Positions 533 to 18,418 of a stretch of DNA of 19,786 nt are shown here, piece by piece. The DNA comes from a virus. Lineage: Duplodnaviria; Heunggongvirae; Uroviricota; Caudoviricetes. The position numbers and the translations under genes are program-made. Position 1 is the stretch's first letter, and each line of letters begins with the position of its first letter. The stretch is taken from the IMG/VR virus record IMGVR_UViG_2721755712_000006. The stretch is one strand, 5' to 3'. The notes beneath the pieces were generated by a model that saw only the letters and a program-made list of their open reading frames with translations, ran no database searches and was not told where the DNA came from.

Positions 533-553
533 TTTAATGGTGCGATAATAGGA
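533..553. repeat. Imperfect direct repeat of the thrW 3' end (att-type boundary repeat)
   Basis: tttaatggtgcgataatagga here versus tttgaatggtgccgataatagga at 18338..18360 (tRNA 3' end); two single-base differences. Confidence 0.6.
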
Positions 554-612
554 ACAAAACAAACAATAAAAATACATTGATATATAAAGACATTTTCCAG
601 TTACATCTTTGG

Positions 613-637
613 AGATACCCCCAAAAGTACCCCCAAA
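613..637. repeat. Putative integrase arm-type site, left-end copy
   Basis: gatacccccaaaagtacccccaaac closely matches aatacccccataagtacccccat at 18209..18230, same orientation, each just inside an att core copy. Confidence 0.35.
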
Positions 638-895
638 CAATTTTCTCTCACCACCATTTGCACATAAAGCAGCCATGTACAACTGGTAGTTGAACAGGCG
701 GGTAGACCGTTCGTTCAGTAAATACCTGATATTTCCGCCAACGAGAAATTGCGTTGGCTGGCAGAGTGCAAATTTGCACGATAACCTAACCCATTGATTC
801 TTTCGAAAACCTGCAATGCAGGAAGCCGGATAACACCATTTTTATAGCTCCGATCCCTTCAAAGTGAGGGGTAATTTGCCAAAACAGAGAGAGCA

Positions 896-1183
896 TTACT
901 GTCTCTGGCAATCTTTATCGCGATAACGCCTGAAATACCCTCTCGCTTCCTCATCCATACCAAGAGCCGAATGAGTCCGCTTAACTGCCTGTCTTAAATC
1001 TCCGAATCTGTCTGTAGTTGCTGGTGGGCGTGCCGCCTTACGGATACATTCAGAGCGTCTGTTTGCTGCATGTTCACGTTCTTTATCGCCATCTGCCAGC
1101 ATCATGACTTCTGCCCATCGTGCGGCAGCTCTCCGGTATAGCCCTTTTGACTCCAGTTCTTCAGCTTTCCTGTCCCTTATCAT
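896..1183 (-). CDS. Small PerC-family-like regulator (phage/island-associated)
   Basis: 95-aa ORF; N-terminal IRDRKAEELESKGLYRRAAARWAEVM resembles PerC/Pch-type small regulators as I recall them; basic C-terminus. Not verified by search. Confidence 0.4.
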   Translation of the reverse strand: MIRDRKAEELESKGLYRRAAARWAEVMMLADGDKEREHAANRRSECIRKAARPPATTDRFGDLRQAVKRTHSALGMDEEARGYFRRYRDKDCQRQ

Positions 1184-1219
1184 TTCTGCCTCTCAGATTA
1201 TATAGATAAGCAAAAAGGT

Positions 1220-1340
1220 GTTGGTTCAGTTGGTTCAGTTGGTTCAATTTGTAAAGATCGTTGTTTTTATTGTGTTTTTTCTGAAATATTGAACCAACAT
1301 CAACTCATTTTGAACCAACACAGCCCAGCTCTGAACCAAC
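1220..1340. repeat. Iteron cluster A (crr/ori-like): 3 tandem GTTGGTTCA plus 3 inverted TGAACCAAC at 21-bp spacing
   Basis: GTTGGTTCA at 1220..1228, 1229..1237, 1238..1246; TGAACCAAC at 1290..1298, 1311..1319, 1332..1340. Confidence 0.7.
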
Positions 1341-1394
1341 AACACAGCGATAGCTTTGTGATTGGTCCGTTATTTTCTGGCTGATATTTGAGCG

Positions 1395-1425
1395 TATAAC
1401 AGTGTTATACAGTGGTATACTGTAT
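1395..1425 (+). promoter_or_regulatory. Operator-like repeats upstream of the 1443 ORF
   Basis: Tandem TATAACAGTG / TTATACAGTG followed by inverted repeat ATACAG-N7-CTGTAT, just upstream of the start codon. Confidence 0.3.
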
Positions 1426-1442
1426 GGATATTACTCACTGAT

Positions 1443-1883
1443 ATGGTCTTTGCAATGAGCAAATCTAATCTGGTCGCGTTCCGCATCCCATCTGAATTGC
1501 AGGATGAGTTTAATCGGTCTGTTCTCGCTTCTGGAGGGGATAAAACCTCCTGGCTTGTTGATGCGATTCGCATGAAGCTGGGACAGCCGGAAAAGTCTAT
1601 TGATTCACGAATGCTTGGGCTGGTGGAGCGCATGGAAAAAGCCGCTGCGTCGCTTATTGCCGGAAAGCCGAACATCCCACCAAAGCCATATAACGAAACG
1701 GCAGTTATAAAGATCATTGCCGATACCATCCGACAGGGATTTGATAATGGGCGTGTGATAGCGGAACGGCTCAATGAAGCAGGCTACCAAACAAAAGCTG
1801 GTAAAGCGTGGGATAAAGACATTTACAGCGCGTGGAAGCGTCAGGGTAACAATATTAAAAGAATCAATACGCTGCTTCAGTAA
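1443..1883 (+). CDS. Hypothetical DNA-binding protein with N-terminal ribbon-helix-helix-like segment
   Basis: 146-aa ORF (alternative ATG at 1455). N-terminus NLVAFRIPSELQDEFNRSV...WLVDAIRMKL has an RHH (CopG/Arc-like) pattern; C-terminal LNEAGYQTKAGKAWDKDIYSAWKR resembles a recombinase-type DNA-binding helix. No clear SD. Confidence 0.5.
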   Translation: MVFAMSKSNLVAFRIPSELQDEFNRSVLASGGDKTSWLVDAIRMKLGQPEKSIDSRMLGLVERMEKAAASLIAGKPNIPPKPYNETAVIKIIADTIRQGFDNGRVIAERLNEAGYQTKAGKAWDKDIYSAWKRQGNNIKRINTLLQ

Positions 1884-1912
1884 TTGATCAGTGTATAAAT
1901 GATATTTATCGC

Positions 1913-2890
1913 TCAATCGCTCCCTTTCCGCCCTTCAGCTACAGGGTCGTTGTCGGCGATAACAAAACCTAAGTCCTGAGAGAATCTCTCTCGTGGGAAT
2001 CCTTTAGCAGGTAAACCCATTGAATCATATCCACATCCGGGAACATTTGGTTTAGAGTCAATAAGGTCTGCAATTTGCCGAAGCCATGTTGATCCCGGAC
2101 CAAGTCGTTTAACTAAGTACCAGATAATACAGATCGCGCTAAAAATCCTCTCGCAACTCTCTGGATGGAGATTAAGTCCGTCAAAGTATTCATTATCCGG
2201 TACTGGAACTCGGGGATGCTTTCTATTCCATATTCTGGAATGGTGAGCGCAACGATTCCTTATGAGATTAAGGCACTTCAACCATTTTGCAAATGTCTGC
2301 TTATTATCAATGCCAAAACGACGTATAATTTTCCCCTGCATATGACCATTAAGCATCGCATAATATTTAGACATCTGACCAAAATCCCAGGTCTCCACCG
2401 CCACCCAAAATGGAATCTCCTTGCCTTGGCTTCGATGCCATTCAATACAGTCATCTCTGCTTTCGTCTAATTTTACTTTTTGCTTATACACCCAATGCTC
2501 GAAGGCAGATGAGAATTTTGGATTAATGTATTTTGATGACATGTAGGCAAGTGGATCATTGCGACCAACCTCATGCGCGATGACTGAACGAACATGAATC
2601 TCTATTCTTTCGATAGCATCAATCATCAAAAGACGCAGTTTTTTGTCAAAAAGATATAGATCGTACGTCTTCTCGAAACTGGTACCAGCAAGAAATCGGT
2701 CTGTTCTGTACGAAAGACCTTTATCTGTTGTCGCAATAATTCTTGATGGGTACCAAAAACCTGACAATCGATAATATCCAACCTGCGACAGCTTACGTAT
2801 CGCACGATTTCGATCATTGATAATCATGCCACGTTCAAGTAGCAATCCTAGCAATTCGTGATAGTCCTTATGAGGCTTTGCGGCAATCAT
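1913..2890 (-). CDS. Abi_2 family abortive infection protein (AbiD/AbiF-like)
   Basis: Contains the hallmark NRCAHHSRIWN motif plus YYRLSGFWYP near the N-terminus. ORF track starts at a GTG at 2935; ATG at 2890 (MIAAKPHKDYHELL...) fits family N-termini better. Neither start has a good SD. Confidence 0.7.
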   Translation of the reverse strand: MIAAKPHKDYHELLGLLLERGMIINDRNRAIRKLSQVGYYRLSGFWYPSRIIATTDKGLSYRTDRFLAGTSFEKTYDLYLFDKKLRLLMIDAIERIEIHVRSVIAHEVGRNDPLAYMSSKYINPKFSSAFEHWVYKQKVKLDESRDDCIEWHRSQGKEIPFWVAVETWDFGQMSKYYAMLNGHMQGKIIRRFGIDNKQTFAKWLKCLNLIRNRCAHHSRIWNRKHPRVPVPDNEYFDGLNLHPESCERIFSAICIIWYLVKRLGPGSTWLRQIADLIDSKPNVPGCGYDSMGLPAKGFPRERFSQDLGFVIADNDPVAEGRKGSD

Positions 2891-2986
2891 AGTGGCGAAA
2901 CAAAAGATAATAAAAGGCCCGACCGTGAAACTCACATGCCTGAAATCGGCGGCGGAGAAACAGAGGATCGGGCTCGGTTGCCTGTA

Positions 2987-3014
2987 ACTCTATCCGAAGT
3001 TATCCACATGTCAA
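2987..3014 (-). promoter_or_regulatory. Candidate sigma70 promoter for the Abi gene
   Basis: On the minus strand TTGACA (rc of 3009..3014), 16-nt spacer, TAGAGT (rc of 2987..2992), upstream of the Abi start. Confidence 0.25.
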
Positions 3015-3060
3015 TGCACAGTTACTTAGGAAACTAACATAGATACTATCATCACTCACG

Positions 3061-3083
3061 AAAAACCACTATATGTGGTTTTT
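3061..3083. terminator. Hairpin with flanking A/T runs (possible bidirectional intrinsic terminator)
   Basis: aaaaaccac-tatat-gtggttttt perfect 9-bp stem, followed by tattcat on the plus strand. Confidence 0.3.
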
Positions 3084-3358
3084 ATTCATATCGTTATCCA
3101 CTACAGGCTGTGTCAATAACTTTTACCTATTAATTGGGTAATTTCTACATTTTCCTATGCTGGCTAGTTTCTCTACTGAAAAGTTGGCACTCCTTAATCG
3201 CTTTTCGGTTAATACTATCGGTCTTCATATTGCCAGCAGCATACGCCATCCGATAATTTCGATGCTACGCGCGCGTACTTGTCGCAAAATATCAGGCAAA
3301 GGCCAGATTCAGAACGTCGTGATAACCACCAGCACAACATGAGATGTCATGTAACACG

Positions 3359-3366
3359 ATTTATCA
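3359..3366. repeat. IS1 target site duplication, left copy (ATTTATCA)
   Basis: Identical 8-mer directly abuts both IS1 ends (3359..3366 and 4135..4142). Confidence 0.7.
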
Positions 3367-3421
3367 GGTGATGCTGCCAACTTACTGATTTAGTGTATGA
3401 TGGTGTTTTTGAGGTGCTCCA

Positions 3422-3697
3422 GTGGCTTCTGTTTCTATCAGCTGTCCCTCCTGTTCAGCTACTGACGGGGTGGTGCGTAACGGCAAAAGCACCGCCGGAC
3501 ATCAGCGCTATCTCTGCTCTCACTGCCGTAAAACATGGCAACTGCAGTTCACTTACACCGCTTCTCAACCCGGTACGCACCAGAAAATCATTGATATGGC
3601 CATGAATGGCGTTGGATGCCGGGCAACTGCCCGCATTATGGGCGTTGGCCTCAACACGGTTTTACGTCACTTAAAAAACTCAGGCCGCAGTCGGTAA
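3422..3697 (+). CDS. insA: IS1 InsA
   Basis: 91-aa product [43 protein letters not shown]... matches IS1 InsA. Confidence 0.9.
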
Positions 3698-4119
3698 CCT
3701 CGCGCATACAACCGGGCAGTGATGTGATTGTCTGCGCGGAAATGGACGAACAGTGGGGCTACGTCGGTGCTAAATCACGTCAGCGCTGGCTGTTTTACGC
3801 GTATGACAGGATACGGAGGACAGTTGTGGCGCACGTTTTCGGTGAACGCACTCTGGCCACACTGGCGCGTCTTCTGAGCCTGCTGTCGGCCTTTGAGGTC
3901 GTGGTATGGATGACGGATGGCTGGCCGCTGTATGAATCACGCCTGAAGGGAAAGCTGCACGTTATCAGCAAGCGTTACACTCAGCGCATTGAGCGACATA
4001 ATCTGAATCTGAGACAACATCTGGCAAGGCTGGGACGGAAGTCACTGTCGTTCTCAAAATCGGTGGAGCTGCATGACAAGGTCATCGGGCATTATCTGAA
4101 CATAAAACACTATCAGTAA
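3616..4119 (+). CDS. insB: IS1 InsB (transposase InsAB' by -1 frameshift)
   Basis: 167-aa product [27 protein letters not shown]... matches IS1 InsB with several substitutions relative to the canonical sequence as I remember it. Confidence 0.85.
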
Positions 4120-4134
4120 GTTGGAGTCACTACC

Positions 4135-4142
4135 ATTTATCA
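4135..4142. repeat. IS1 target site duplication, right copy (ATTTATCA)
   Basis: See left copy. Confidence 0.7.
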
Positions 4143-4535
4143 CATCAGATACATGTGATTGGTGTACCCGCATAAAACATCGTCATAGCGCGTCCTGTGC
4201 GCATATACGCCGATAATCAACACATCACCACCACTCTGTCTCGTGTAGAGAACAGTTTCATGGTATCCCCCGCCATCGTGTGCGTACTGGTCGGACGTAG
4301 TTGCAAAATTTTTGCAACTGATACCCCTCGCGCGCGTACTGGTCACGAAATTGGTGTTTTGCTGTGGCAGTGATATCAGAAAAATCTTCCTGTTTCACAT
4401 AAAGCGGATATGCGCGTACTGTAACGGCCCCATCAACGGGGATCGGATTTGAAATCCCGACCCAAGCTATGTACCAAATGCCATGTCTTGGATATATGAT
4501 GATTGCCATTCTAAACAACGCTAAAGGGGGTTGGT

Positions 4536-5150
4536 GTGAGCAGAAAAGATACTAAAGAATTGCTAACTATCTGCATGGTGTACTTTTCAATTTATTTTTG
4601 TGCATACATGGTAGTCCCAGATGAGTTTGAACATGGCAGTATTATTTATTCCATAACATTCTATTTTTTAGAGCTAACACCAATTTTGGCTATCCTTTTG
4701 GCAATACATATTTATTTTTCCTTAAAAAAAGAATCGACTAATTGGGAGAAGGTATGGAGAGACAGAGGATTTCTAACATCACCTAAAGATGATGCATATG
4801 AGAGTGATTTTTCTGACTTTATAACAAACTACTACTCCAGCGAACAATTCAAAAATAGACTGTCTGATGTTTGGGAAACAGCAATGTATTCCATAGGGAT
4901 TATATTATTGATACTTACTGGTATCGCTCAATATGTTTTTAACATTGACTTATCATTAAATCCTGAAAATTTAATATCGCCATTGATTTTTGGTGAGATA
5001 TTGATCTTCTCATTCGGAATTTTCTTGAGTGTTGTTCTCTGCTCATTATGCAAACTACTGACTAACAGGTATCCAGGTGAAGCAAGGAGAGCAAGAAAGG
5101 CAAATCCATATTATCTTTTATTTCCTAATGGAGACAGCAGAGATATCTAA
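4536..5150 (+). CDS. AT-rich integral membrane protein (about 4 predicted TM helices), unknown function
   Basis: GTG start preceded by AAAGGGGG SD. Hydrophobic stretches near residues 10-25, 40-60, 115-135, 147-170 (by eye). Roughly 30% GC against ~50% neighbours. Convergent with the 701-aa gene; stops 18 bp apart. Confidence 0.6.
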   Translation: MSRKDTKELLTICMVYFSIYFCAYMVVPDEFEHGSIIYSITFYFLELTPILAILLAIHIYFSLKKESTNWEKVWRDRGFLTSPKDDAYESDFSDFITNYYSSEQFKNRLSDVWETAMYSIGIILLILTGIAQYVFNIDLSLNPENLISPLIFGEILIFSFGIFLSVVLCSLCKLLTNRYPGEARRARKANPYYLLFPNGDSRDI

Positions 5151-5168
5151 GCCATCCATGGCTACCAG

Positions 5169-7274
5169 TTATTGAGCTTCTTTTTGTGATGCCTGTGCGA
5201 CTCTGGTGAGCGATTGTGTGACCGTACTGATCGCTCTGTCATATGCTGTGCTACCTTTTGGCGTATTTGCCAGACGTAACAAGGCATTTCGTATAACAGG
5301 GCTTTCGTATGCCTTCGCTGCTCCGCCTACGGCACCAGCAGCAGGAACAACAAACGCAGCCGTTTTTAGCATCCCCGCTAATACTGCTGCGTTTATGATG
5401 CCACCACCAACTAACAATCCATAAAGCTGCTGACCATTTAAGTTTTGAACGTTCGCTTTTGCCGCGTGTCTTGTATCGTTGAGGTATTTAATAACGCCGT
5501 CCAGTTCCTTTCCATGTACGCCTTTAAAGAAAGTTGCTGATTGCTTCCTGTTCCGGTGTAACGCATTAATAAACTTCTCAACACTGATATTTCCAGACGG
5601 ATCAGTCGCCTTATCTACAGCATTCTGAACTATGGCTGCTCGTGCGTTTTGCCTACCATTGTCATCCAGAAGCCTGTAAAGCTGAGAACGTTCTGATGGG
5701 CTTTGGCTAAAAACGAGTTTTGTTACATCCTCAGGCGTGGCCTTGCCGCTGGCTATTGCCTTTTGAACGCGCGTTCTTCCCATCATGTCATTGAATTTAG
5801 ACCATGAGCGATCAACCCTTGCCATATTAATGGCTTCGTCTGCTCCAAGATTTTTGGCTACGGCTTTTTTCATATCCGCCGTATATGCCTTGTAGATAAT
5901 ATCGCTGGCTTTCTGGAGCGTATCTTTATCAACAGTGTCAGATGACGCCATAAATCGCTTTCGAAGATCGGTTCTGTTTTCCCTCGCCAGACGCAGGTCA
6001 TTTGGTCCGCTGGTGATATCGTCTTTAAATTGCTGCAAGACTTTTACCGCGGCTCTATCCTGAGATTTGCCCGGGCGGCTTAACACGGCAATCTGATTGT
6101 CGATAGCTTTTACCGTGTTTGAGAGATCGACAGGGGTATCCCCCATAGCGTCAATTATGCGGTTATATCGCTTTCCTGCTGCCTCAATGAATTTTTGTTG
6201 CCCTTTAGTCGCAGATTCATAAAGCTGTTTATCAGAAATGCCACCCAGACCATCGCTAAATGTTCTGACTAAATTTTCTCGTGCTTGTTGTTGATTCAGC
6301 CGATTCTTACCGGTTCCAAAAAAAGGAACTCTTTCGCCTAATGTCTGAGCCTGACTCTGCATAAAGGTTTTATCTTTCAGCATGTCACTGGTCATTAACG
6401 GCAGATTTCTTTCCGATGCAAAGTCGACAGCAGCCTTTGCTTCAGGCGACATATCACCACGAACAGCCCTCGAAACCGCACTCGCTGTATTTTCCAGCCC
6501 CTTACCAATACCACCAATGCCAGCAGAAATTACCGTTTGTAACGGATCAATATCTTCTCCACCAGCAAGGCTGGTGGCTCCCTGTAGTGCTAAATCTGTA
6601 GCTGCTGATTTTCCTATGGCACTAAGCACCGTTCCAGCCCTGCCCGCTGGTGTAAACGCCAACGCATTAGCAAGAAACGAGGTCAGGTCTTGCGGTGATA
6701 AACCCGGCTTGTTCAGGGCATAATCACCTGATGGCAGAGAAACGATAGTATTCCCCTTCTCATCCTGCCTTAATGTCGCCCCCATTCCCTGAAGAATCTT
6801 TTCCTGAGACGCGTCAGAGCCGAAAAGTTGAGACCATCCAGCCTTTAGGGCATCCATGCTTAGTGAGTTCAATTCTGGGGCAGAGGCGACATTTTGCAGT
6901 CTCTCCATCTCTGGAGTCATTCGGCTTTCGCCTGTTATAGCATCGCGCATCGCAGCCCCAAGACTGGCTCCCTGTTCTGCTGAACGCTCAAGCCCCTCTC
7001 TTTGCTGAGTAGCTAACTTTGCATACCCTGACGCAAGAGAATTATCAGATGATGTATGTTGAATATTTTGAGTTGCTGATTGGGATCGGTCTATTTCATT
7101 CGTTGATGGTAGTGGATAGGCAGCATAAAAAGCCTGCTTAGCCTGCTCTACACTTTCTCCGGCTTGCGGGGCCACGACTTCATTGAAGTATTGCTCCTGA
7201 GCCTGCGCTTTTTGTTCTGGTGCTAACGCCTGATACTGTGGAGAGGCGATAACATCTTTCCATGCTTTAGCCAT
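5169..7274 (-). CDS. Large hypothetical protein (701 aa), Ala/Gln/Gly/Ser-rich helical, C-terminal Gly/Ala-rich hydrophobic segment
   Basis: Long ORF; ATG overlaps the stop of the upstream gene (TAATG); GGGGTG SD. Hydrophobic segment LYGLLVGGGIINAAVLAGMLKTAAFVVPAAGAVGGAAKAY near residues 617-656. No family recognised. Confidence 0.7.
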   Translation of the reverse strand: MAKAWKDVIASPQYQALAPEQKAQAQEQYFNEVVAPQAGESVEQAKQAFYAAYPLPSTNEIDRSQSATQNIQHTSSDNSLASGYAKLATQQREGLERSAEQGASLGAAMRDAITGESRMTPEMERLQNVASAPELNSLSMDALKAGWSQLFGSDASQEKILQGMGATLRQDEKGNTIVSLPSGDYALNKPGLSPQDLTSFLANALAFTPAGRAGTVLSAIGKSAATDLALQGATSLAGGEDIDPLQTVISAGIGGIGKGLENTASAVSRAVRGDMSPEAKAAVDFASERNLPLMTSDMLKDKTFMQSQAQTLGERVPFFGTGKNRLNQQQARENLVRTFSDGLGGISDKQLYESATKGQQKFIEAAGKRYNRIIDAMGDTPVDLSNTVKAIDNQIAVLSRPGKSQDRAAVKVLQQFKDDITSGPNDLRLARENRTDLRKRFMASSDTVDKDTLQKASDIIYKAYTADMKKAVAKNLGADEAINMARVDRSWSKFNDMMGRTRVQKAIASGKATPEDVTKLVFSQSPSERSQLYRLLDDNGRQNARAAIVQNAVDKATDPSGNISVEKFINALHRNRKQSATFFKGVHGKELDGVIKYLNDTRHAAKANVQNLNGQQLYGLLVGGGIINAAVLAGMLKTAAFVVPAAGAVGGAAKAYESPVIRNALLRLANTPKGSTAYDRAISTVTQSLTRVAQASQKEAQ

Positions 7275-8740
7275 TAATCACCCCATAGTGAAGAAAAGTT
7301 ACTGCTGGCTGCTGGCTGTGATACCTGCTCAGATTGCGGCAATGTCTGCGACGAAGAAGCAGTTCCTCTGTCAACTGCTGAAATAACCCGCAAAGCATCA
7401 TAAGTTCGACCAGAAGCAGCTTTCAGCGAATTGAACTGGTTTTCCATCTTCCGGCGCTTGGTATCAATGGTTTTTGTGGAATCACCAGGCTGAGGGAAAT
7501 ACATTTGATAATATTTGGACATTTCAGCTGGTAGGATAGATGCCCCTGTTTCCTGACGGAGTATTGCCATTATTGCGTCATTAGCATTAACAACGTATTG
7601 CTGCTCTGCTGGGCTGAGCGTTAAGTTAGCCAGCGTCCCATTACCCAAAGCATTATTAATGATCGCCACTCGCTGTGGGCTAAGCTGGTCTTTCAGTGTA
7701 TCTATTGAATCAAGAGCATCCCTAACCCTGTATGCAAATCCAGCAGCTTTTTTAGCCCCTTCTGGCGACTTTTCCATGATCTTTTGGGCTGTTGGCAAAG
7801 CTATTGGACGAAACCCATCTCCAGATATTGGCTGGTTTAGTTTTCCCTGCTCTTCACTTCCGTCTGTGTAGTATTTTGTGACAGTGCCATCATCGTTTTC
7901 TCTAACACTCATTAATTTTTTGGCGTTTGTATTAATTCCAGCCGCTGCCGCAAATGCCGCCGCCCCCTCTGGATCCGCCTTTAACATTTGAGCGTACTGA
8001 TTGTAATTCTGCATTGCTGCTGTTGGTGCATATGCTGACGTTAACGCATTTGCTCGGCTAATATCCTGCCCTCTCGCCTGAAGTGCTTCGCCAGCCTGAT
8101 TGCTGCGGATTGTCTCTGCCAACTTGCCACGCTCAATATCCCGACCTTCCATTTGATCTTTGATATCGAAATACTTCTCATGACCGAGAGAAAACAGCGC
8201 CAGATTACCTGCGAAATGCTGGAAGCCCTGCGGGTCATTAACCTGCATTTCAGCAATAGTTTCTGGAGGGATACCTAAACGACGCATCTCCTGCTCATTA
8301 TCCATCATGAACCTGCCAAATGCGCCCTGACCAAGCGATGAGGCTACCTGTGCTTTGAGCGCCAGATTGCCATAATCATCCCTTTGAGCATCATCGACAT
8401 AACTCATCCCTTTACGGACTTCCTCAAACTCTTCTGGGAATGCTGTAATAAGATTACGCATCTGCTCCCTGTCACCGGACGCATAAGCATCTGCATAAGC
8501 TTTCTGGAATGCCGCTTTACGCTCCTGCTGTTGCTGCTGCTTATAAATATCAGCAACGCCAGCCAGACCACGAAGACCTGTCAGAGCAACGTTATTTGCA
8601 CCTGAGCGAGCCAGTTCATTGTTTTCGCGGATCAGACCAAGCGTTGCGTTAATGTCGCTTGCCTTTGGCGCATTCTCATTTTGCGTACCGATGCCAGCCA
8701 GAAAACCACCAGAATTAATACCCTGTTGCCACGTAGCCAT
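7274..8740 (-). CDS. Large hypothetical protein (~488 aa from ATG at 8740; 492 aa from GTG at 8752), low-complexity Ala/Gln-rich
   Basis: Long ORF translationally coupled to the 701-aa gene; poly-Gln run and Ala-rich tracts; no catalytic motif recognised. Confidence 0.7.
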   Translation of the reverse strand: MATWQQGINSGGFLAGIGTQNENAPKASDINATLGLIRENNELARSGANNVALTGLRGLAGVADIYKQQQQQERKAAFQKAYADAYASGDREQMRNLITAFPEEFEEVRKGMSYVDDAQRDDYGNLALKAQVASSLGQGAFGRFMMDNEQEMRRLGIPPETIAEMQVNDPQGFQHFAGNLALFSLGHEKYFDIKDQMEGRDIERGKLAETIRSNQAGEALQARGQDISRANALTSAYAPTAAMQNYNQYAQMLKADPEGAAAFAAAAGINTNAKKLMSVRENDDGTVTKYYTDGSEEQGKLNQPISGDGFRPIALPTAQKIMEKSPEGAKKAAGFAYRVRDALDSIDTLKDQLSPQRVAIINNALGNGTLANLTLSPAEQQYVVNANDAIMAILRQETGASILPAEMSKYYQMYFPQPGDSTKTIDTKRRKMENQFNSLKAASGRTYDALRVISAVDRGTASSSQTLPQSEQVSQPAASSNFSSLWGD

Positions 8741-8758
8741 TGATTTACCCACGTCCAG

Positions 8759-8917
8759 TTAAAGTGTAAGCCAGCGCCTTATCCATTAATCCCCGAGCAA
8801 TTTCGTGGATCGTTGGCGCAACTCCTACCTCTGATTTTTTACGCTGCTCCTCCTGAATTTTCTTTATCGCTTCCATTTGCTTCTCACTTATCAATACTGG
8901 CTTTACTGAAATAGCCA
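8759..8917 (-). CDS. Small protein (52 aa), possibly ribbon-helix-helix DNA-binding; first gene of the cargo operon
   Basis: Not in the ORF track (under 60 aa). ATG at 8917 with strong SD AAGGGGG; product MAISVKPVLISEKQMEAIKKIQEEQRKKSEVGVAPTIHEIARGLMDKALAYT; stop 6 nt before the next gene's GTG. Confidence 0.45.
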
Positions 8918-9011
8918 TAACGCCCCCTTAGAACTGTATAAAACAACAGTCATTATAGTTTCATAAAACGCAACATTCATCATTGTGATTGCAAAATATG
9001 AAACAAATAGC

Positions 9012-9044
9012 ACAAAAAAATGCCACCGTTCAGTAGCTGGTGGC
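9012..9044 (-). terminator. Intrinsic terminator for the 152-aa gene
   Basis: On the minus strand: GCCACC-11 nt loop-GGTGGC (rc of 9022..9044) followed by a T7 run (rc of 9014..9020). Confidence 0.5.
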
Positions 9045-9098
9045 ATCGTTCTGTATGTCAGGTTTTGACAGTTTTTTTATGGACTCTAAAAACTATAT

Positions 9099-9643: not shown

Positions 9644-9754
9644 GTCACGTTGTGTTGGTTCAAAATGCCGTGTTGTTGGTTCAGTGTTGGTTCAATAAAA
9701 AGAATAAAATCCTTATAAAACAATACTCTTTACAAATTGAACCAACTGAACCAA
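9644..9754. repeat. Iteron cluster B (putative replication origin downstream of the primase gene)
   Basis: GTTGGTTCA at 9644..9652, 9665..9673, 9676..9684; three tandem TGAACCAAC at 9728..9754. Segment 9717..9761 is the exact reverse complement of 1213..1257. Confidence 0.7.
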
Positions 9755-9789
9755 CTGAACCAACACCTTTTCTACGCACATGAAGAAGC

Positions 9790-12546: not shown

Positions 12547-12558
12547 TCTGGCCCCCGT

Positions 12559-13161
12559 TTAGTGCGTCACTGGTGCTTCTGGGATGCCGTTTTCGTTTAG
12601 TTCGGCAATAAAGCTGTTGTGAAGATCGGCAAGCACTTCTCGCCCAAACGAAGTGAGTGTTCCCTGTTCGACATCGAACATGTTGCTGTAAAAAATGATG
12701 GCATTCTTTGTTCCGACATCAACACCATATTTCTCGATCATTGCGCCCTCAATGTTGTTTGCCATAGCGAGGCGCTCTGCTACTGGATACAGCGGCATGG
12801 CGACGATGCCATTGGAATAAACAGAAACCACGGAATGATTGCCACTGTCATCAATAATGCTGACGGTGCCGTTTCCCTTTCTCATTTCATTGATGAATGC
12901 TGTTGCTATCAGCCAGCGCCACATAATCACGTGATGCTGTGATGTGTAATCGAAATATCCCTGGTTGCCGCCACTGGCAATAGCGAGATGTATAAACATG
13001 CCTTCATCTGGTTTATCGTCATAATCCCCGGCATCCAGACGATTTACGGCATCAATATATGAGACGGTCTCAACGCGTTCTGTCATGCCATCGTTGCTGC
13101 GGTGCATGATGTTTACGCCGTCAGGCGTTGCTTCTGCATGGAAGGTTAAGAAATTATTCAT
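12559..13161 (-). CDS. Hypothetical protein (~200 aa) immediately upstream of the primase
   Basis: ATG at 13161 (MNNFLTFHAEATPDG...) with GAGG SD, overlapping the stop of the upstream gene by 8 nt; the ORF track's longer 235-aa form begins inside the upstream gene. Confidence 0.55.
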   Translation of the reverse strand: MNNFLTFHAEATPDGVNIMHRSNDGMTERVETVSYIDAVNRLDAGDYDDKPDEGMFIHLAIASGGNQGYFDYTSQHHVIMWRWLIATAFINEMRKGNGTVSIIDDSGNHSVVSVYSNGIVAMPLYPVAERLAMANNIEGAMIEKYGVDVGTKNAIIFYSNMFDVEQGTLTSFGREVLADLHNSFIAELNENGIPEAPVTH

Positions 13162-13375
13162 GTTTCGCCTCGCCTGAATGATTCTGTAACTCATATTTGC
13201 CCAACAATTCGTCTGCTTCCTGAATAGCTTCTGGTACGCCATTGAGCAGTGACATAACCGCGCCAATCATTAACTTGTCTCTGTTGCTGGGGCTGGCCCC
13301 TTCAAGCCAGAACCCTAAAACAGTCTGAACCTGTTCGATGCGACATTGCGCTTCAATGAGCTGGATGTTGGTCAT
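13154..13375 (-). CDS. Small hypothetical protein (73 aa)
   Basis: ORF in an overlapping-stop/start chain (ATGA overlap at 13372..13375). Confidence 0.45.
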   Translation of the reverse strand: MTNIQLIEAQCRIEQVQTVLGFWLEGASPSNRDKLMIGAVMSLLNGVPEAIQEADELLGKYELQNHSGEAKHE

Positions 13376-13635
13376 TTCGCACTCTCCACATCGATTAAAC
13401 TGATATCTATCAGGGAGGTAACTTTTTGTAGCCAGCTATTGATTACTGTCGCCTGTTCCCCTCCCACCGAGGGAATAATCTCATTCATCACATGAACCAG
13501 ACCTGTGCGCGCTCTGGTAAGCCGTTCAGTCGCGCAATCTGCGGGAGTGAATGTGTCTGGATATGGCTCTTCGCGCCCCAGCAATGATTCAATTTCCAGC
13601 TCACACGGATGACGATAAATTAAGTTGATATTCAT
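13372..13635 (-). CDS. Small hypothetical protein (87 aa)
   Basis: ORF in the same coupled chain (ATGA overlap at 13632..13635). Confidence 0.45.
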   Translation of the reverse strand: MNINLIYRHPCELEIESLLGREEPYPDTFTPADCATERLTRARTGLVHVMNEIIPSVGGEQATVINSWLQKVTSLIDISLIDVESAK

Positions 13636-13826
13636 TTTTCACCCCCAAGAATTACCAGCTCGGCACGGGCATCGTTAACCAAAGATGAGCACGCTTTAAT
13701 CGCATCCACGACATCAGCAGCGTCCATTTCTTCAGCCGAAAGACTGACAGCAACCAGGACAGCCGCTGCTTGCTCGATTAATTGAAGTGCGGACGTAAGG
13801 CGAGGGGTATTAATTGAGTTATTCAT
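13632..13826 (-). CDS. Small hypothetical protein (64 aa)
   Basis: ORF in the same coupled chain; overlaps upstream gene by 8 nt. Confidence 0.4.
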   Translation of the reverse strand: MNNSINTPRLTSALQLIEQAAAVLVAVSLSAEEMDAADVVDAIKACSSLVNDARAELVILGGEK

Positions 13827-14037
13827 TGGTTGCCCCCGTTTTTACTGGCATTTCGCCACCTTCCAGCAGGAAATGAACGTCACGAACGGCGAGATCCAAT
13901 ATCGCGAGTAACGCCTTCAGTCTTTCGTCTCGTGAGGGAGAGTTGCTCACCAGAATGTCGTTAATCACTTCTGTCAGTGTGATGATCTGGCTTGTGCGTT
14001 CGAGGGGATCCATATGCACATCGTAGGTTTTAATCAT
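13819..14037 (-). CDS. Small hypothetical protein (72 aa)
   Basis: ATG at 14037 (MIKTYDVHMDPLER...) with GGAGGTGG SD; this is the 3' part of the long 13819..14886 track ORF. Confidence 0.4.
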   Translation of the reverse strand: MIKTYDVHMDPLERTSQIITLTEVINDILVSNSPSRDERLKALLAILDLAVRDVHFLLEGGEMPVKTGATNE

Positions 14038-14224
14038 GTGCCACCTCCATGCGGATACGACCAGCAAAAAAGCAGACGTGATCGCGCACCAGAGAACGGC
14101 GAGCATCGCGTTCAGACTCGGCAGCAATATGATGAATTTTGGCGGTAATTGTCGGGCAATCGCGGCGAACTGCGGCGATAATCCAGATAAATTGCGGTTT
14201 TTGGGTAGGGGTAGTAGCCAGCAT
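14030..14224 (-). CDS. Small hypothetical protein (64 aa), first ORF after the structured leader
   Basis: ATG at 14224 (MLATTPTQKPQF...) preceded by GGAGG, which lies inside a predicted stem. Confidence 0.35.
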   Translation of the reverse strand: MLATTPTQKPQFIWIIAAVRRDCPTITAKIHHIAAESERDARRSLVRDHVCFFAGRIRMEVAHD

Positions 14225-14470
14225 GTGGCAGCCTCCATTCGATAGCATGTAACGCTACCACCGGAAACGCCAATTTCGCTGGTGGTAGCCCAGACAGGGT
14301 TGGCGTAACCGGCTCGAATGGATACCGGCGCTTCCGAAGAAGCCCCTGCCTGAGCCACCATTGATTGACAAAGGCGCTGGATTATACACCAACGCCCAAA
14401 AAATGGGTGAGTCAGACCTACGACATAAAAAAAGACGCTCGGCGCGTCATATGTCGCCATTCGATTTACC
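14225..14470 (-). promoter_or_regulatory. Structured non-coding leader with three mutually complementary 8-9 nt elements (P4 immunity-like topology)
   Basis: Plus-strand TCCATTCGA at 14234..14242, its reverse complement TCGAATGGA at 14314..14322, and a direct copy CCATTCGAT at 14457..14465; nested inner inverted repeat GCTACCACC (14254..14262) / GGTGGTAGC (14281..14289). Confidence 0.35.
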
Positions 14471-14524
14471 AGGACGCCAATCCCGGCACCCGTTTTATGA
14501 GGTGCCTTATAACCATAAACCGTG

Positions 14525-14551
14525 TTGCCGCATAACGGCAAGCTCTTTTTT
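14525..14551 (+). terminator. Hairpin plus T6 on the plus strand (possible terminator or part of the leader structure)
   Basis: ttgccg-cataa-cggcaa, then gctc, then tttttt; no obvious plus-strand gene upstream, so its role is uncertain. Confidence 0.25.
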
Positions 14552-14879
14552 ATGGACTCCGAAAACTCACTATTGGAAGAACCAGAAGCACAGTACATCG
14601 CGCTCATTTCGTTAACGTCACGCGCGTGGACGAATGTTTTTGTGGAGTCACTACACGAGCAGAACAGGTCATCTACGACCAGAAATTCTCTGGCGCAGCC
14701 GCTGACCTTCTCAACGCTAACATCATCGACCGTGATTTCTGACATAGTTAAGGCATCCGCTCCTACCACCAGCAAATGATAAACTTTGCTTGTATCTGCT
14801 GTATTAATGCCTGACTTTGCTGTCATATTGCTGGATTTTGGCGACATGCCAGCCAGTGAAAATGTCTTCTTCTGGGCGG

Positions 14880-15062
14880 TTAGCATTTGTTAACCTCCGC
14901 GAACTCCTTCATGAAACGTGCCAGCGGTTGTACGCATGGCGATTGATACCCGTCGCGATAAAACGTCACTCGGTTGTGAGACACGCTTTCGACAGTAACG
15001 AGTGCTCCGTGGGCATCTTTGTAGCGTTTTTGAGGTTGTGGTGTTCCTGTCGGCTTAAACAT
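14880..15062 (-). CDS. Small hypothetical protein (60 aa)
   Basis: ATG at 15062 (MFKPTGTPQPQKRYKDAHG...) with GGAGG SD 6 nt upstream; 8-nt overlap with the antirepressor gene stop. Confidence 0.4.
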   Translation of the reverse strand: MFKPTGTPQPQKRYKDAHGALVTVESVSHNRVTFYRDGYQSPCVQPLARFMKEFAEVNKC

Positions 15063-15888
15063 GGACCGCCTCCAGACGCTTAGCGAGCCAGCGTTGCGAC
15101 AGGCGGGTGAGTTCTCCTTTGCGCTGCTCATATTCCATGCCCATATCAATTAACGTGATATTGGTGCTTTCGAGATATGAGAGGTGCTCAAGCTGTTCTG
15201 CGTTCATATGGTCGCGAGGTTCGCCAGAATAGCCATTTATCCGCGCCCACTGCTTAGCAGTTAGCCCACCAAGAACGATACGAGAAATCATATTGCTCTC
15301 GTTTGTGTAGTGGTGTTGCTGCGTCGTTTTCCCCATCTCGGCACGGGCCATGTTCAGCGCATCGCACATTGGCTTAAAGTTGTTTGCGGCACTGATACGG
15401 GCTTTTAGCTGGCGACGATAGCGGGCGGCGATTTCAGGCACGCTACGCTGTAATTCTTTCTCGCACTGGATGAAATAACGGCGGATAGCGCGACCCTGAT
15501 CATTGCGTTCGATCATTGCCAGTTCTTTCGCCATTCCGACACTTAACAGATAGTCTTTGCCGGGTCTGCCAGAGTGCTTAATCTTGCTGTAAGCCGCGCC
15601 ATTCGGGCTTTTCCCCAAATTTGGGGAAATTGTTTTATGGACTGAGTAATCGTGCCCAATGGTGAAGTCATATTCAGAGATGCGATCAGTGATCCATGTA
15701 GAGAAGTCTTTTCCCACGCCCAACGCTTTGTGTAACGCTTTTGCGCTAACAATATTGGTTTCACGCCCACCTATATGACCAGGAATAACCGGGACAATTG
15801 CGGCAAATTCATTACCGTTAATTGTGCCCAGAGAGGCGTTCAGATGAGGGGCAGCCTCAGAAATTAATCTGCTTTTTTCGATGTTCAT
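15055..15888 (-). CDS. AntA/AntB-type phage antirepressor-like protein
   Basis: 277 aa; segments SAKALHKALGVGKDFSTWITDRISEYDF and KDYLLSVGMAKELAMIERNDQGRAIRRYFIQCEKEL resemble the AntA domain as I recall it; GGAG SD. Confidence 0.65.
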   Translation of the reverse strand: MNIEKSRLISEAAPHLNASLGTINGNEFAAIVPVIPGHIGGRETNIVSAKALHKALGVGKDFSTWITDRISEYDFTIGHDYSVHKTISPNLGKSPNGAAYSKIKHSGRPGKDYLLSVGMAKELAMIERNDQGRAIRRYFIQCEKELQRSVPEIAARYRRQLKARISAANNFKPMCDALNMARAEMGKTTQQHHYTNESNMISRIVLGGLTAKQWARINGYSGEPRDHMNAEQLEHLSYLESTNITLIDMGMEYEQRKGELTRLSQRWLAKRLEAVHV

Positions 15889-15900
15889 TTTCAGTCTCCG

Positions 15901-16332
15901 TTAGGCGGCGTTAAACGCGTCCGGGTAGAGTTTCAGAATGTCGGCAATTTCCTGCTGAGAAAGTCCGTTGTGATCATTTATGTTCGCAAGATGGTTAATA
16001 TGAGTGATCACTTTCAGAACATCACCACGGCAGGAGAAACGGTAGCGAAGGTGTGTTCCGATACCATCAGGATTCTTTTCGTCGATACGCTCCAGAGTGA
16101 TTCCGAGCTGGCGTTCTAACTCTGTTGCATAGTTACGACCAGAAGACAGACGGCAGTAGCGAAGAATGTCATTTTCTGTCCATCCCTCTATACCAGTACG
16201 CAGCATATAGACTCGGGCACGATGCTTTTTCGGCGTGCGCTTTGGTGCTTGAAGGGATTTTGTCAGGGGCGTAACATCAGATACGCGAATATCTGAATTA
16301 GCCGCCTGTAATGGGCGGTTTTTCTTTTCCAT
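15901..16332 (-). CDS. Hypothetical protein (143 aa), translationally coupled to alpA
   Basis: ATG overlaps the alpA stop (ATGA); basic N-terminus; no family recognised. Confidence 0.5.
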   Translation of the reverse strand: MEKKNRPLQAANSDIRVSDVTPLTKSLQAPKRTPKKHRARVYMLRTGIEGWTENDILRYCRLSSGRNYATELERQLGITLERIDEKNPDGIGTHLRYRFSCRGDVLKVITHINHLANINDHNGLSQQEIADILKLYPDAFNAA

Positions 16333-16535
16333 CAGGCCACCTCGTCTCTAGATTCTAATATACACTTCTCAATCCATTCATCTATTTCAGACTCAACAAA
16401 AGCAATTGCCCGACTTCCAATTTTTACCTGTTTAGGGAACCTCCCCTGACTAATAAGACGATAAATCCATGCTTTGCTATAACCAGTTCGCCTTTGAACT
16501 TCAGAGAGACGAATTAATGAATTGTAATTAGCCAT
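16332..16535 (-). CDS. alpA: AlpA-family phage regulatory / excisionase-like HTH protein
   Basis: 67 aa; LIRLSEVQRRTGYSKAWIYRLISQGRFPKQVKIGSRAIAFVESEIDEWI is a typical AlpA pattern. Confidence 0.85.
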   Translation of the reverse strand: MANYNSLIRLSEVQRRTGYSKAWIYRLISQGRFPKQVKIGSRAIAFVESEIDEWIEKCILESRDEVA

Positions 16536-16962
16536 TTATTAATATCCTGTACTAATGACGCAATAACCCCCTCCTGCAACGAATGGCGAGAGTTTTATTT
16601 GCGTCAAATGTCGAATACGCCAAAGACCACAATATGAAAAACATATTGCGGTCTTTTATAAAAGATAGTCAGATTGTTTTGGTTTGTTTGCTCCACAAGG
16701 GTAGAGCTACCCTGCATTTCGGCAGGATCACGCTATTAGGCGTGACATCCAGTAGTTTTAAAGAACAATTGCGCTTTGTCAGCGCCAAAGCCTGTTAAAG
16801 AACATTCCGCTTTTCAGCAGCGTAGAAGGCTCAATACACCTTCGTTTATAAAAGAGCGATTGCCCTTCTCCAGGGCTAACTGTTAAATAGCAATCCTCTG
16901 TGAGTTTTTATCAATCTACTCCCCTATACTTTAGTAAACCTCTGTATACTTGTCCAGTTGTT

Positions 16963-18177
16963 TCATGCGTGTTTTTCAAACACCATATGCACCACATTTC
17001 CGCCATGCTCGAGAGAATCCATATAGTCGGCATACCATTGAAGCATCTCCCGCCGTCCATCCAGATATTGCGCATGGTTGTATGTGCCACGAATTGAGTT
17101 CTTATCAACGTGAGCGAGCTGCGTTTCTATCCACGCGGTGTTATAGCCCTGCTCATGCAAAATCGTGCTCATAGTGTGTCGGAACCCATGACCAGTTACA
17201 CGTCCAGCGTAGCCAATGCGCTTAAACACTTGGTTTATGCTGGCCTCACTCATTGTTTTCCTTGGATCATTGCGCCCGGGAAACATAAGAGGGTAATTGC
17301 CTGTTATTTCTCTAATCTTCCCAATAAGCGAAAGAGCCTGCTCAGACAATGGCACAATATGAGGCCGCCGCATTTTCATACGTGAAGCGGGTATCTCCCA
17401 TATAGCCTTGTTGAAATCAATTTCATCCCATAATGCGCCACGTAGTTCGCCAGTTCGCAAGCCGGTGATAATCAGTAGGCGAGCCGCCATAACAACCAAT
17501 GCGCTTCCTGAGTAACTGGATAATGCCTTGAAAAAATCAGGTAATTCTTTGGTCGTAAGGAAAGGGTAATGATTAGATTCATGGCCTTGCATCGCGCTAG
17601 TAAGGTCTGGTGCAGGGTTATACTCTGCGCGACCAGTGACTATTGCATAGCGGAAAACTTCCCCGCACCGCTGCCTCACTTTTTTGGCTTTTTCTGTCGC
17701 ACCGCGCCCCTCGATGCGCCGCAGCACATTCAGAAGTTCAAGTGGTTTGATTTCGGCGATTGGTTTTTTGCCAATGTAAGGGAACACATCTTTGTTGAAG
17801 GCTTCGAGGATGTCTGAAGCATAACCAGCAGACCATTTTTTTAATTTGCTGCTGTGCCACTCAAGGGCAATATCTTTGAAGGTGTTGTTTAACTGCGTTT
17901 CCCGGGCAATCTTTTCCTCTCGTTTCGCTTCCATCGGATCGATACCACCAGCGATACCTCTTTTCGCATCTTCACGTTTTGCCCGAGCATCGGCTAGAGT
18001 AACCTCAGGATACACACCTAGTGCCAATAGCTTCTCTTTACCTGCTACACGATATTTAAGTCGCCAGTATTTACCTCCATTAGGTTTTACCAAGAGATAC
18101 AAACCGCCACCATCGGCCAGCTTGTAAGCCTTCTCTTTTGGCTTGGCTGTGTCTATTTGACGGGCATTGAGTTTCAC
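16963..18177 (-). CDS. P4-type tyrosine integrase (site-specific recombinase)
   Basis: 404 aa; N-terminal arm-binding region LYLLVKPNGGKYWRLKYR; C-terminal catalytic region with HGFRHT and final Tyr region; GTG start with GGAGG SD; adjacent to the tRNA. Confidence 0.9.
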   Translation of the reverse strand: MKLNARQIDTAKPKEKAYKLADGGGLYLLVKPNGGKYWRLKYRVAGKEKLLALGVYPEVTLADARAKREDAKRGIAGGIDPMEAKREEKIARETQLNNTFKDIALEWHSSKLKKWSAGYASDILEAFNKDVFPYIGKKPIAEIKPLELLNVLRRIEGRGATEKAKKVRQRCGEVFRYAIVTGRAEYNPAPDLTSAMQGHESNHYPFLTTKELPDFFKALSSYSGSALVVMAARLLIITGLRTGELRGALWDEIDFNKAIWEIPASRMKMRRPHIVPLSEQALSLIGKIREITGNYPLMFPGRNDPRKTMSEASINQVFKRIGYAGRVTGHGFRHTMSTILHEQGYNTAWIETQLAHVDKNSIRGTYNHAQYLDGRREMLQWYADYMDSLEHGGNVVHMVFEKHA

Positions 18178-18208
18178 TTGGGGGTACCTCCACTAAACCG
18201 AACAGCAA

Positions 18209-18326
18209 ATACCCCCATAAGTACCCCCATCTGACCGTAGATTTTGAGGGACTTTAGTAGACGTCAAAAGACGAACGGGGCTTTAATACGTGGATTATAA
18301 GGGGTTTTGAAAGACTTTAGTAGACT
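18209..18326. repeat. att-proximal arm-type repeats (right end)
   Basis: aatacccccataagtacccccat at 18209..18230; two direct copies of GACTTTAGTAGAC at 18250..18262 and 18313..18325. Confidence 0.45.
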
Positions 18327-18342
18327 TGGGGAGATGTTTGAA

Positions 18343-18418
18343 TGGTGCCGATAATAGGAGTCGAACCTACGACCTTCGCATTACGAATGCGCTGCTCTAC
18401 CAACTGAGCTATATCGGC
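18343..18418 (-). tRNA. thrW: tRNA-Thr (anticodon CGU)
   Basis: Reverse complement reads GCCGATATAGCTCAGTTGGTAGAGCAGCGCATTCGTAATGCGAAGGTCGTAGGTTCGACTCCTATTATCGGCACCA: 76 nt with encoded CCA and a GGTTCGA T-loop. Confidence 0.95.

Follow-up and report, generated by a model that had tools for sequence, protein, structure and literature searches.

An EcCIMP1-type island in thrW of Escherichia coli, probably a satellite of P22-like podoviruses, carries a candidate pac copy and its own ejection-protein genes

How does a chromosomal island with no recognizable capsid or terminase gene leave its host in a phage particle, and which phage supplies that particle? The question is raised by a 19,786-nucleotide stretch of DNA cataloged as a tailed phage (IMG/VR record IMGVR_UViG_2721755712_000006) and referred to here, at its full length, as the window. 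The window is Escherichia coli chromosome and comprises a paoD-side LysR fragment (1..411), an island, the tRNA gene thrW, and then proA. A first-pass annotation, made from the sequence alone, had described the island as a complete thrW-integrated element of about 17.8 kb with a P4-like gene order, which might be a degenerate satellite or resemble a phage-inducible chromosomal island (PICI). The island is probably an intact PICI of the EcCIMP1 type, that is, a satellite of P22-like podoviruses (Lederbergvirus) residing in thrW and moving by the mechanism proposed below. It carries a fragment of a P22-type small-terminase gene, which is a candidate packaging signal, and two ejection-protein genes. 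These features were absent from the first-pass annotation, as were a SieA-like gene, an IS1 copy, the C4 and isrK RNAs, and a second iteron cluster.

The thrW gene, encoding tRNA-Thr(CGT), lies at 18343..18418 on the minus strand, and its 3′ 17 nt (18343..18359, TGGTGCCGATAATAGGA) form the attL core. This 3′ end is repeated at 538..553, the attR core, as TGGTGC-GATAATAGGA, with one C fewer; GATAATAGGA is common to both cores. For the comparison with an empty thrW site that the first-pass annotation had suggested, window positions 301..553 were fused to 18360..18606, and the synthetic site was searched in 5426 complete E. coli genomes. One uninterrupted match, with 100% coverage and 99.8% identity, was found in 948 of them, and in ATCC 8739, for example, LysR′, thrW, and proA are contiguous. 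Because the construct matches as a single piece, the island boundaries are exact. The left thrW repeat is not a product of chance, and the delimitation of an element with both att boundaries was correct; the insert measures 17,805 bp (538..18342), or ~17.03 kb without a recent IS1. The LysR-family fragment on the paoD side (1..411) lacks its N-terminus, and the same fragment is also found in empty-thrW genomes, which makes the truncation older than the island and unrelated to it.

Arm-type integrase sites are located just inside both ends, as had been noticed previously. The motif ATACCCCCAWAAGTACCCCCA occurs at 615..635 and 18209..18229, and the 8-mer TACCCCCA is present in five copies in the window against 0.28 expected, all of them near the ends, no farther than 100 bp (attR) to 165 bp (attL) from the cores. 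Two of these copies form a pair at 615..635 (plus strand) just inside attR. The attL-side sites occupy the 18179..18325 region, with TACCCCCA at 18179 (minus strand), 18210, and 18222. The two additional direct repeats reported at the integrase end were also recovered; they are 21 bp long and lie between int and attL (18242..18262 and 18305..18325).

The family to which the island belongs is identified by comparison with EcCIMP1, a 19,963 bp PICI of E. coli MP1 that occupies the tRNA-Thr gene adjoining proA and is flanked by TCCTATTATC (Pick, Stadel and Raivio, ISME J 2025, PMC11773190). This flank is the reverse complement of GATAATAGGA in the window. At the MP1 locus, the attR, mapped by experiment, shows an identical single-C core with an identical pair of arm sites just inside it, and blastn gives 98.8% identity for window positions 9596..12546 and 95.9% for 12561..19786. 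Given the backbone identity together with the shared attR core and arm pair, the island is EcCIMP1-like with a different cassette and cargo. The 96-99% backbone identity supports a PICI-like element, as the first-pass annotation had proposed, over a true P4. The element is an additional member of a family published in January 2025, and its kind is already known. In MP1, the EcCIMP1 attR (L008 1..8720) adjoins a second, decayed island with a truncated P4-type integrase, vat, and marR, which indicates that thrW collects tandem islands; the window holds a single element.

EcCIMP1 excises and circularizes only in the presence of the P22-like helper vB_EcoP_Kapi1 or upon its induction, and it needs alpA and int to do so (PMC11773190). 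It is transduced by Kapi1 at an "extremely low" rate, and its authors, who class it as "Type C #var01" with no recognized packaging/interference module, state that its packaging mechanism is unknown (PMC11773190). No later literature on EcCIMP1 packaging was found. By analogy, the helper-triggered integration and excision by integrase and AlpA that were shown for EcCIMP1 would also apply to the window copy.

Eight family loci were compared, namely the window and seven loci fetched from E. coli genomes (L005-L008 and L010-L012, where L008 is MP1). Three relatives beside yicC carry another integrase, and L005 adjoins lambdoid prophage genes, not thrW. A thrW member (L010, 7654..10005) has a DUF5906 replication protein in place of the TOPRIM/DUF927 primase and lacks the TGAACCAAC iterons described below, with the pac fragment and the gp20/gp16 cassette kept; the replication module is thus exchangeable. 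One candidate relative without the pac fragment (H177/L145) turned out to be an unrelated element. The terminase-gene fragment, at full length and with satellite flanks, occurs in ~483 of the 5426 E. coli genomes (roughly 9%). With a family this frequent and all backbone genes intact, the notion of a degenerate satellite is not supported.

All open reading frames (ORFs) of at least 50 aa in the window were scanned with Pfam and PHROG by hmmscan. Leftwards from thrW, on the minus strand, they encode a P4-type tyrosine integrase with arm-binding, central, and catalytic domains (16963..18177), the regulator AlpA (16332..16535; Pfam Phage_AlpA, E=7e-20), a PM1773-family protein (15901..16332), an AntA/AntB antirepressor (15055..15888), a DUF4222 protein (14880..15062), a long "ash family" ORF of 355 codons (13819..14886), small ORFs, a 918 aa primase-helicase with Zn-ribbon, TOPRIM, and DUF927 parts (9790..12546), a 153 aa ORF, a 57 aa ORF, gp20, and gp16. 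The replication operon also contains a gene for a phrog_1515 protein and three conserved short ORFs (12559..13826, minus strand). The scans confirm the order of int, alpA, antirepressor, small genes, and primase given earlier, and they agree with the reported lack of recognizable sid, delta, and psu. None of the window ORFs hit homologs of sid, psu, delta, terminase, portal, coat/capsid, or lysis genes, and none matched the PICI packaging/interference families terS, rppA, ppi, and cpm. Relative to the definition of Gram-negative PICIs (Fillol-Salom 2018; de Sousa 2023), the island has the integrase, AlpA, primase module, 10-20 kb size, and specific att sites. It departs from that definition, which includes a packaging/interference module and excludes virion genes, in having no such module family and in carrying two ejection-protein genes. 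The position of these genes downstream of the primase, and of a PerC-family gene at the far end, is the EcCIMP1 arrangement with a different cassette allele.

Both ejection-protein genes are intact and lie on the minus strand. The gp16-family (DNA transfer) protein of 701 aa (5169..7274) matches phrog_770 over positions 3-667 of 668 (E=1e-162), and the gp20-family protein of 488 aa (7274..8740) matches Pfam Inj_translocase (E=5.5e-84) and phrog_917. The cassette is headed by a conserved 57 aa ORF (8745..8918, minus strand) that is 92-100% identical in all 8 family loci. The nearest gp16 homologs, at 67.5% identity, are those of coliphages N7 and HZ41, followed by Sf6, L, and ST64T (32-39%) and P22 (~30%); the gp20 homolog is 55% identical to P22 gp20 in its N-terminal part. 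Between satellite copies, the ratio of nonsynonymous to synonymous divergence is 0.15 for gp16 and 0.27-0.37 for gp20, and both genes are under purifying selection. The synonymous divergence of gp16 is ~10 times that of the primase, which implies that the cassette has its own exchange history. Its alleles also reassort, as the gp16 of L012 is 99.9% identical to that of the window and the gp20 82%. Two cassette forms exist, 57aa-gp20-gp16 and 53aa-DUF2824-gp7like-gp20-gp16like. Ejection-protein genes follow the replication gene in all eight E. coli loci and in the three IMG/VR satellite contigs with enough flank (3/3). In the relatives L006 and L007, the cassette is also interrupted or truncated by IS1.

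Next to the cassette, a gene on the plus strand (4536..5150), convergent with gene 16 as in P22, encodes an inner-membrane protein resembling the superinfection-exclusion protein SieA. Its product has a PHROG SieA-like match (E=4e-4), 28.7% identity to P22 SieA over 108 aa (blastp, E=8e-8), four hydrophobic segments, and an RYPGEA motif common with P22 SieA; on these similarities, it is a distant SieA homolog. SieA stops DNA entry of P22-like phages, and the mutations by which phages escape it lie in the C-terminal regions of gp16 and gp20 (PMC10883804). Additionally, gp16 and gp20 must share a phage origin to work, gp7 is exchangeable, and foreign ejection proteins are assembled into P22 virions (PMC10883804). 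These findings on co-adaptation and assembly make it plausible that an island with a matched gp20 and gp16 pair refits helper particles. A literature search found no described satellite that supplies ejection proteins.

The cassette could be read differently, since thrW is also the integration site of P22 (with a 46 bp thrW sequence as attP), and a P22 prophage carries its 20-16-sieA block in this very order and direction with respect to thrW. The locus would then be a chimera of a P4-like integrative element and the decayed right end (20, 16, sieA) of a former P22-like prophage in thrW, with the ejection genes as leftovers. However, the same cassette follows the replication gene in the relatives beside yicC, which have a different integrase, and in L005 near lambdoid prophage genes. 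The attR site has the short family-type core and the family arm sites instead of the 46 bp core of P22, and beyond the cassette comes the second iteron cluster, conserved along with it. The ejection genes, moreover, are intact and under purifying selection, and in EcCIMP1 the cassette is excised with the rest of the island as one unit (PMC11773190). A chimera is highly improbable and was rejected, as the cassette also accompanies the satellite elsewhere in the chromosome and the two island ends are cognate.

If the cassette belongs to the satellite, its proteins may serve to deliver the satellite's own DNA, as proposed here, or they may act mainly against phages, with mismatched gp16/gp20 poisoning helper virions and SieA blocking entry. 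P22 virions with a mismatched gp16 or gp20 do assemble and yet are non-infectious (PMC10883804), EcCIMP1 helps to confer immunity to superinfection by Kapi1 (PMC11773190), and an AbiD gene lies in the same cargo region. In contrast, EcCIMP1 causes no drop in Kapi1 titer on induction (PMC11773190), and the gp20/gp16 pair is always found together and intact, as a delivery function requires. A mainly anti-phage role is therefore considered improbable. The delivery and interference roles are mutually compatible.

One unexpected match is a candidate packaging signal, a fragment of the P22-type small-terminase gene 3 at the position of pac. The fragment spans 107 bp on the plus strand (14632..14738; ~nt 268-380 of gene 3), and its first 22 bp, GAATGTTTTTGTGGAGTCACTA (14632..14653), correspond to pac, which is annotated in NC_002371 at gene 3 nt 268-289 (GAAGATTTATCTGAAGTCGTTA). 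It is 89-93% identical to the gene 3 interior in 115-120 P22-like phage records, and when the int-to-primase half of the island was searched against phage genomes, its matches within those phages were to the gene 3 interior only. Homology to B-type phages (e.g., IME10) opens at the first base of the pac-equivalent 22-mer and continues for ~85 bp more, whereas homology to P22 itself opens 5 bp in, at 14637. Coliphage HZ41, which has one of the nearest gp16 homologs, also carries a B-type gene 3. In P22, the cuts that initiate a packaging series are spread over ~120 bp surrounding pac (PMC11226127). About 200 further E. coli genomes have the gene 3 part alone, as the "DNA-packaging protein" of real prophages, and in one family satellite the fragment is annotated by PGAP as a partial DNA-packaging protein.

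The 22-mer is strikingly constant among satellites. Across the 8 family loci, it varies at position 4 only (T or G), whereas the 17 bp that follow it (window 14654..14670; L005-L012) come in three alleles, P22-type, IME10-type, and a third phage type, evidently because satellites have recombined repeatedly with gene 3 of phages, an exchange that left the 22-mer unchanged. The G variant, which EcCIMP1 has, is identical in three IMG/VR contigs encoding a complete 164 aa gp3-type small terminase (TerS), the large terminase (TerL), and portal; the T variant of the window was found in satellites only. In a sample of pac alleles chosen by a conserved downstream 32-mer, and so unbiased toward the 22-mer, phage gene 3 fell into types A (P22, 55 records), B (IME10, 54), C (3), and D (3), and all 11 satellites had the D-type core. 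The variable region of TerS (~aa 69-102) coincides with the pac region. The D-type gp3 TerS allele (L017, L022, L024; E. coli MB1159, NZ_CP174273 1580367..1580544) has P22-like ends with its own central region and pac 22-mer. An exact-pattern scan of species-representative genomes gave only 2 matches, and genome M160133 clearly contains both a satellite and a gp3-type prophage.

That the gene 3 fragment acts as pac is a well-supported hypothesis, given somewhat better than even chances here, and packaging from this pac mimic by the helper terminase would be the likely mechanism as judged from sequence. The island could also be a functional EcCIMP1-like satellite in which the fragment is a recombination scar, now part of an antisense coding ORF, and in which packaging is non-specific or depends on an unrecognized signal or on a protein (the 57 aa ORF or the ejection-protein cassette, for example). 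Several points speak for the scar and weigh against a working pac. The only proven helper, Kapi1, cannot use the pac-like signal, as it has an unrelated Sf6-type TerS and no homology to the gene 3 fragment, and it mobilizes EcCIMP1 all the same. Phage alleles that match the satellite 22-mer are rare and satellites are common; D-type gene 3 occurs in 3 of 115 IMG/VR gene-3 contigs and in 1 of 5426 E. coli genomes. The P22 pseudo-pac pattern, AA[GC][AG][TC][AT][AT][ATC][TC][TC]T[GT][ACG][ACG][ACG]TC (PMC11226127), is missed by the window 22-mer at 2 of 17 positions (T at 3, G at 10) and by that of EcCIMP1 at 1 of 17. The antisense ORF over the fragment starts behind a strong Shine-Dalgarno sequence, reaches across the stop codon of DUF4222, and is open in 8 of 8 loci with a start anchor, so that protein coding could explain part of the fragment's conservation; the T/G change at position 4 is also silent in its frame. 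As for delivery, the window lacks the gp7 and gp14 homologs present in EcCIMP1, L007, and L012, and the part assigned here to the ejection proteins is conjectural.

Against the scar, the homology of the fragment opens at the pac position and spans the ~120 bp zone of P22 initiation cuts, the 22-mer stays D-type though the neighboring 17 bp have been swapped with other phage alleles, and the G variant is identical to a real phage allele. The very inefficient transfer by Kapi1 is what is expected of a non-cognate helper; it fits a TerS that is non-cognate and a phage genome in which the pac-like sequence is absent. A mere scar is thus viewed as rather unlikely, and the fragment is retained as a candidate signal.

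Two further candidates were considered in connection with the fragment. A TerS-like peptide from its plus strand is unlikely, given that the gene 3 frame is open for ~60 codons only and has no ATG or clear start. The sequence GTTTTTGTGGAATCAC at 7470..7485 (plus strand), inside gene 20, agrees with the pac-like 22-mer's core in 15 of 16 positions and is oriented alike (an estimated ~4e-4 expected by chance). A site of this type is also found in L005 and L007 and is absent from the other family loci, P22, and Kapi1; it could be a secondary pac-like site or a coincidence.

How the island stays silent and how it replicates can be proposed from its RNAs and iterons. A C4-type antisense immunity RNA (14278..14365, minus strand; Rfam RF01695, 79.5 bits vs a gathering score of 45) is preceded upstream by an isrK-type RNA (14428..14505, minus strand; RF01394, 67.1 bits vs 50). 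Together with an Icd-like small ORF (14030..14248, minus strand), whose homologs are annotated by PGAP as Icd-like in L006, L008, and L010 and whose window copy has no Pfam match, they constitute a predicted RNA immunity system of the P1 immI / P4 CI kind. Both RNAs lie inside the stretch matched by the Pfam Phage_ASH domain (~14191..14517) on the strand of the "ash family" ORF, which overlaps them and is antisense to the pac fragment. Thus, what is annotated as an "ash family protein" probably consists in large part of RNA genes, the coding status of this ORF beyond its N-terminal part is doubtful, and the Pfam Phage_ASH family itself may largely describe an RNA-coding immunity region. A search for C4-RNA targets returned one 11 nt complement (14763..14773), which is within chance (~0.1 expected) and was dropped.

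The iterons mentioned in the first-pass annotation are real, with 12 copies of the 9-mer TGAACCAAC in the window against 0.15 expected. Six copies form a cluster by the primase gene (9654..9764), the probable ori, and six form a second, crr-like cluster by perC (1220..1340) that is the mirror image of the first. In P4, the iterons likewise lie in two separated clusters, ori and crr, which the window layout resembles. Two clusters are kept in EcCIMP1, L006, and L011, and the comparison of family loci, which includes L010 without iterons, shows that iterons co-vary with the replication protein. The earlier description of the core as P4-like thus stands for the P4-type integrase, AlpA, the primase with two iteron clusters, and the C4/CI-type RNA; the likeness is only partial. 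The variable 153 aa ORF near the first cluster (9099..9560, minus strand) is present only in the window and L006 and has no family match. It is flanked by a 22 nt repeat, TTTTTTATGGACTCYRAAAACT, at 9073..9094 and 14546..14567, the second copy lying just upstream of isrK; the repeat might be a recombination joint or a regulatory target.

Taken together, these elements suggest a life cycle for the island. The C4/isrK antisense-RNA module, of the P1 immI / P4 CI type, would keep the replication operon silent. The lytic cycle of a helper would turn on alpA, upon which the integrase would excise the island, and AntA/B, as an antirepressor, may then lift the repression of a helper prophage resident in the cell. 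The Zn-ribbon/TOPRIM/DUF927 primase-helicase would replicate the circle from the TGAACCAAC iterons in their two mirrored clusters. A helper small terminase of the gp3 type would then recognize the pac-like 22-mer and start headful packaging of concatemers toward int and attL; as a forward-strand pac directs packaging rightwards, the run would go toward int and thrW. A P22 headful is ~43.4 kb. About 2.4 unit lengths of concatemer would fill a normal P22-size head, so that no gene for capsid-size redirection would be needed. The island's gp20 and gp16 would be built into procapsids, form the DNA conduit after adsorption, and set the sensitivity of the particle to SieA. With its own ejection pair, the island may gain entry to cells in which a resident P22-like prophage produces SieA; alternatively, it may damage the helper's progeny.

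It is tentatively proposed, with rather less than even confidence, that EcCIMP1-type islands represent a distinct hijacking strategy, in which a cis copy of the helper pac region, updated by recombination, is combined with gp20 and gp16 that replace those of the helper and permit entry into SieA-excluding lysogens, and in which no remodeling or redirecting protein takes part. Lysogens that exclude P22-like phages via SieA are the very cells that hold the satellite's future helper. Should gp20 and gp16 indeed be incorporated into virions, the island would be the first known case of a satellite altering the DNA-entry machinery of the helper particle, and satellite spread would be tied to superinfection exclusion. 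The only paper on the family left packaging unexplained, and the conserved copy of the pac region offers a directly testable answer. It predicts that efficient helpers are phages with gp3-type TerS, not the Sf6-type Kapi1 used so far. Nothing relevant came out of the literature search on satellites that have a P22 pac site or a Lederbergvirus as helper. The pac copy also faces thrW and proA, and packaging in situ could drive lateral transduction of the proBA region. Besides a testable packaging signal, the present analysis adds to the family its constant ejection cassettes and its anatomy of RNA immunity and double iterons.

The remaining genes lie toward attR. The family is common in E. coli and carries defense genes (AbiD, SieA-like) and a virulence-regulator gene (PerC), and the SieA-like gene, AbiD, and PerC would act as host-benefiting cargo. 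The PerC-family regulator is encoded at 896..1183 on the minus strand (Pfam PerC, E=2.6e-33). The EcCIMP1 homolog silences LEE1 expression, and in Citrobacter rodentium it represses LEE1 instead of activating it (PMC11773190). The window's PerC-bearing island is found in enterohemorrhagic E. coli O26 strains such as 97-3250, where LEE1 repression could matter. A 146 aa hypothetical protein (1443..1883, plus strand), annotated in the RefSeq twin locus, has no family match. The abortive-infection gene AbiD (Abi_2) occupies 1913..2935 on the minus strand (Pfam Abi_2, E=2.3e-52; PADLOC AbiD, E=8e-58). Between AbiD and the SieA-like gene, a 768 bp IS1 (3367..4134, plus strand) is bordered by an 8 bp target duplication, ATTTATCA. 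The locus of strain E70 (NZ_CM173937) is otherwise 100% identical to the window and lacks this IS1, which is a recent simple insertion outside the gene set of the family.

Among known systems, EcCIMP1 is the closest. The two islands share the thrW/proA site, core, arm sites, 96-99% nucleotide identity from primase through int, two iteron clusters, and the gene 3 fragment. They also share the gene order of int, alpA, PM1773, antA/B, DUF4222, ash/icd, small ORFs, primase, 57 aa ORF, ejection cassette, and PerC. They differ in the cassette, as the window encodes gp20 and the 701 aa gp16, whereas EcCIMP1 encodes DUF2824 (in the gp14 position), a gp7-like protein, a 26%-identical gp20, and a 906 aa transglycosylase. 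Cargo and size differ as well; the window has the SieA-like gene, AbiD, and IS1, lacks a second alpA_1, and holds an island of 17.8 kb, compared with 19.96 kb for EcCIMP1.

P4 has in common with the island a P4-type integrase in a tRNA gene, AlpA, a primase-helicase with iterons, an RNA of the C4/CI clan, and an antirepressor (epsilon in P4, AntA/B here). The helicase part of the window protein is DUF927. Unlike P4, the island has no sid, psu, delta, P2-type cos, or capsid-size redirection, and its probable helper is a P22-like podovirus, not P2. The cos-type PICIs EcCICFT073 and EcCIEDL933 share the int-alpA-primase layout, AlpA as a master switch, and PerC-like cargo (PMC6092414, PMC11773190). 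In these PICIs, Rpp redirects a lambdoid TerS to the PICI cos site, whereas no rpp or terS was found in the window, where the candidate signal is a direct copy of the helper pac region and virion ejection proteins are encoded. Capsid-forming PICIs (cf-PICIs) encode their own capsid, portal, and terminase genes, none of which was found in the window by the Pfam and PHROG scans.

The immI region of P1 (c4-icd-ant) likewise groups a C4 RNA, an Icd-like ORF, and an AntA/AntB antirepressor in one region. In the window, however, the genes are ordered differently, with ant upstream of C4 and icd, and the module is part of an integrative satellite. Finally, the late-right module of P22 (14-7-20-16-sieA) provides homologs of gp20, gp16, and SieA, ordered and oriented relative to one another as in the island, and gene 3 provides the 107 bp of homology that includes pac. 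In contrast to a P22 prophage, the window has no terminase, portal, scaffold, coat, tail, or lysis genes, and its att core is 16-17 bp long instead of 46 bp. The gene 3 piece is also inverted relative to the ejection genes, unlike in P22.

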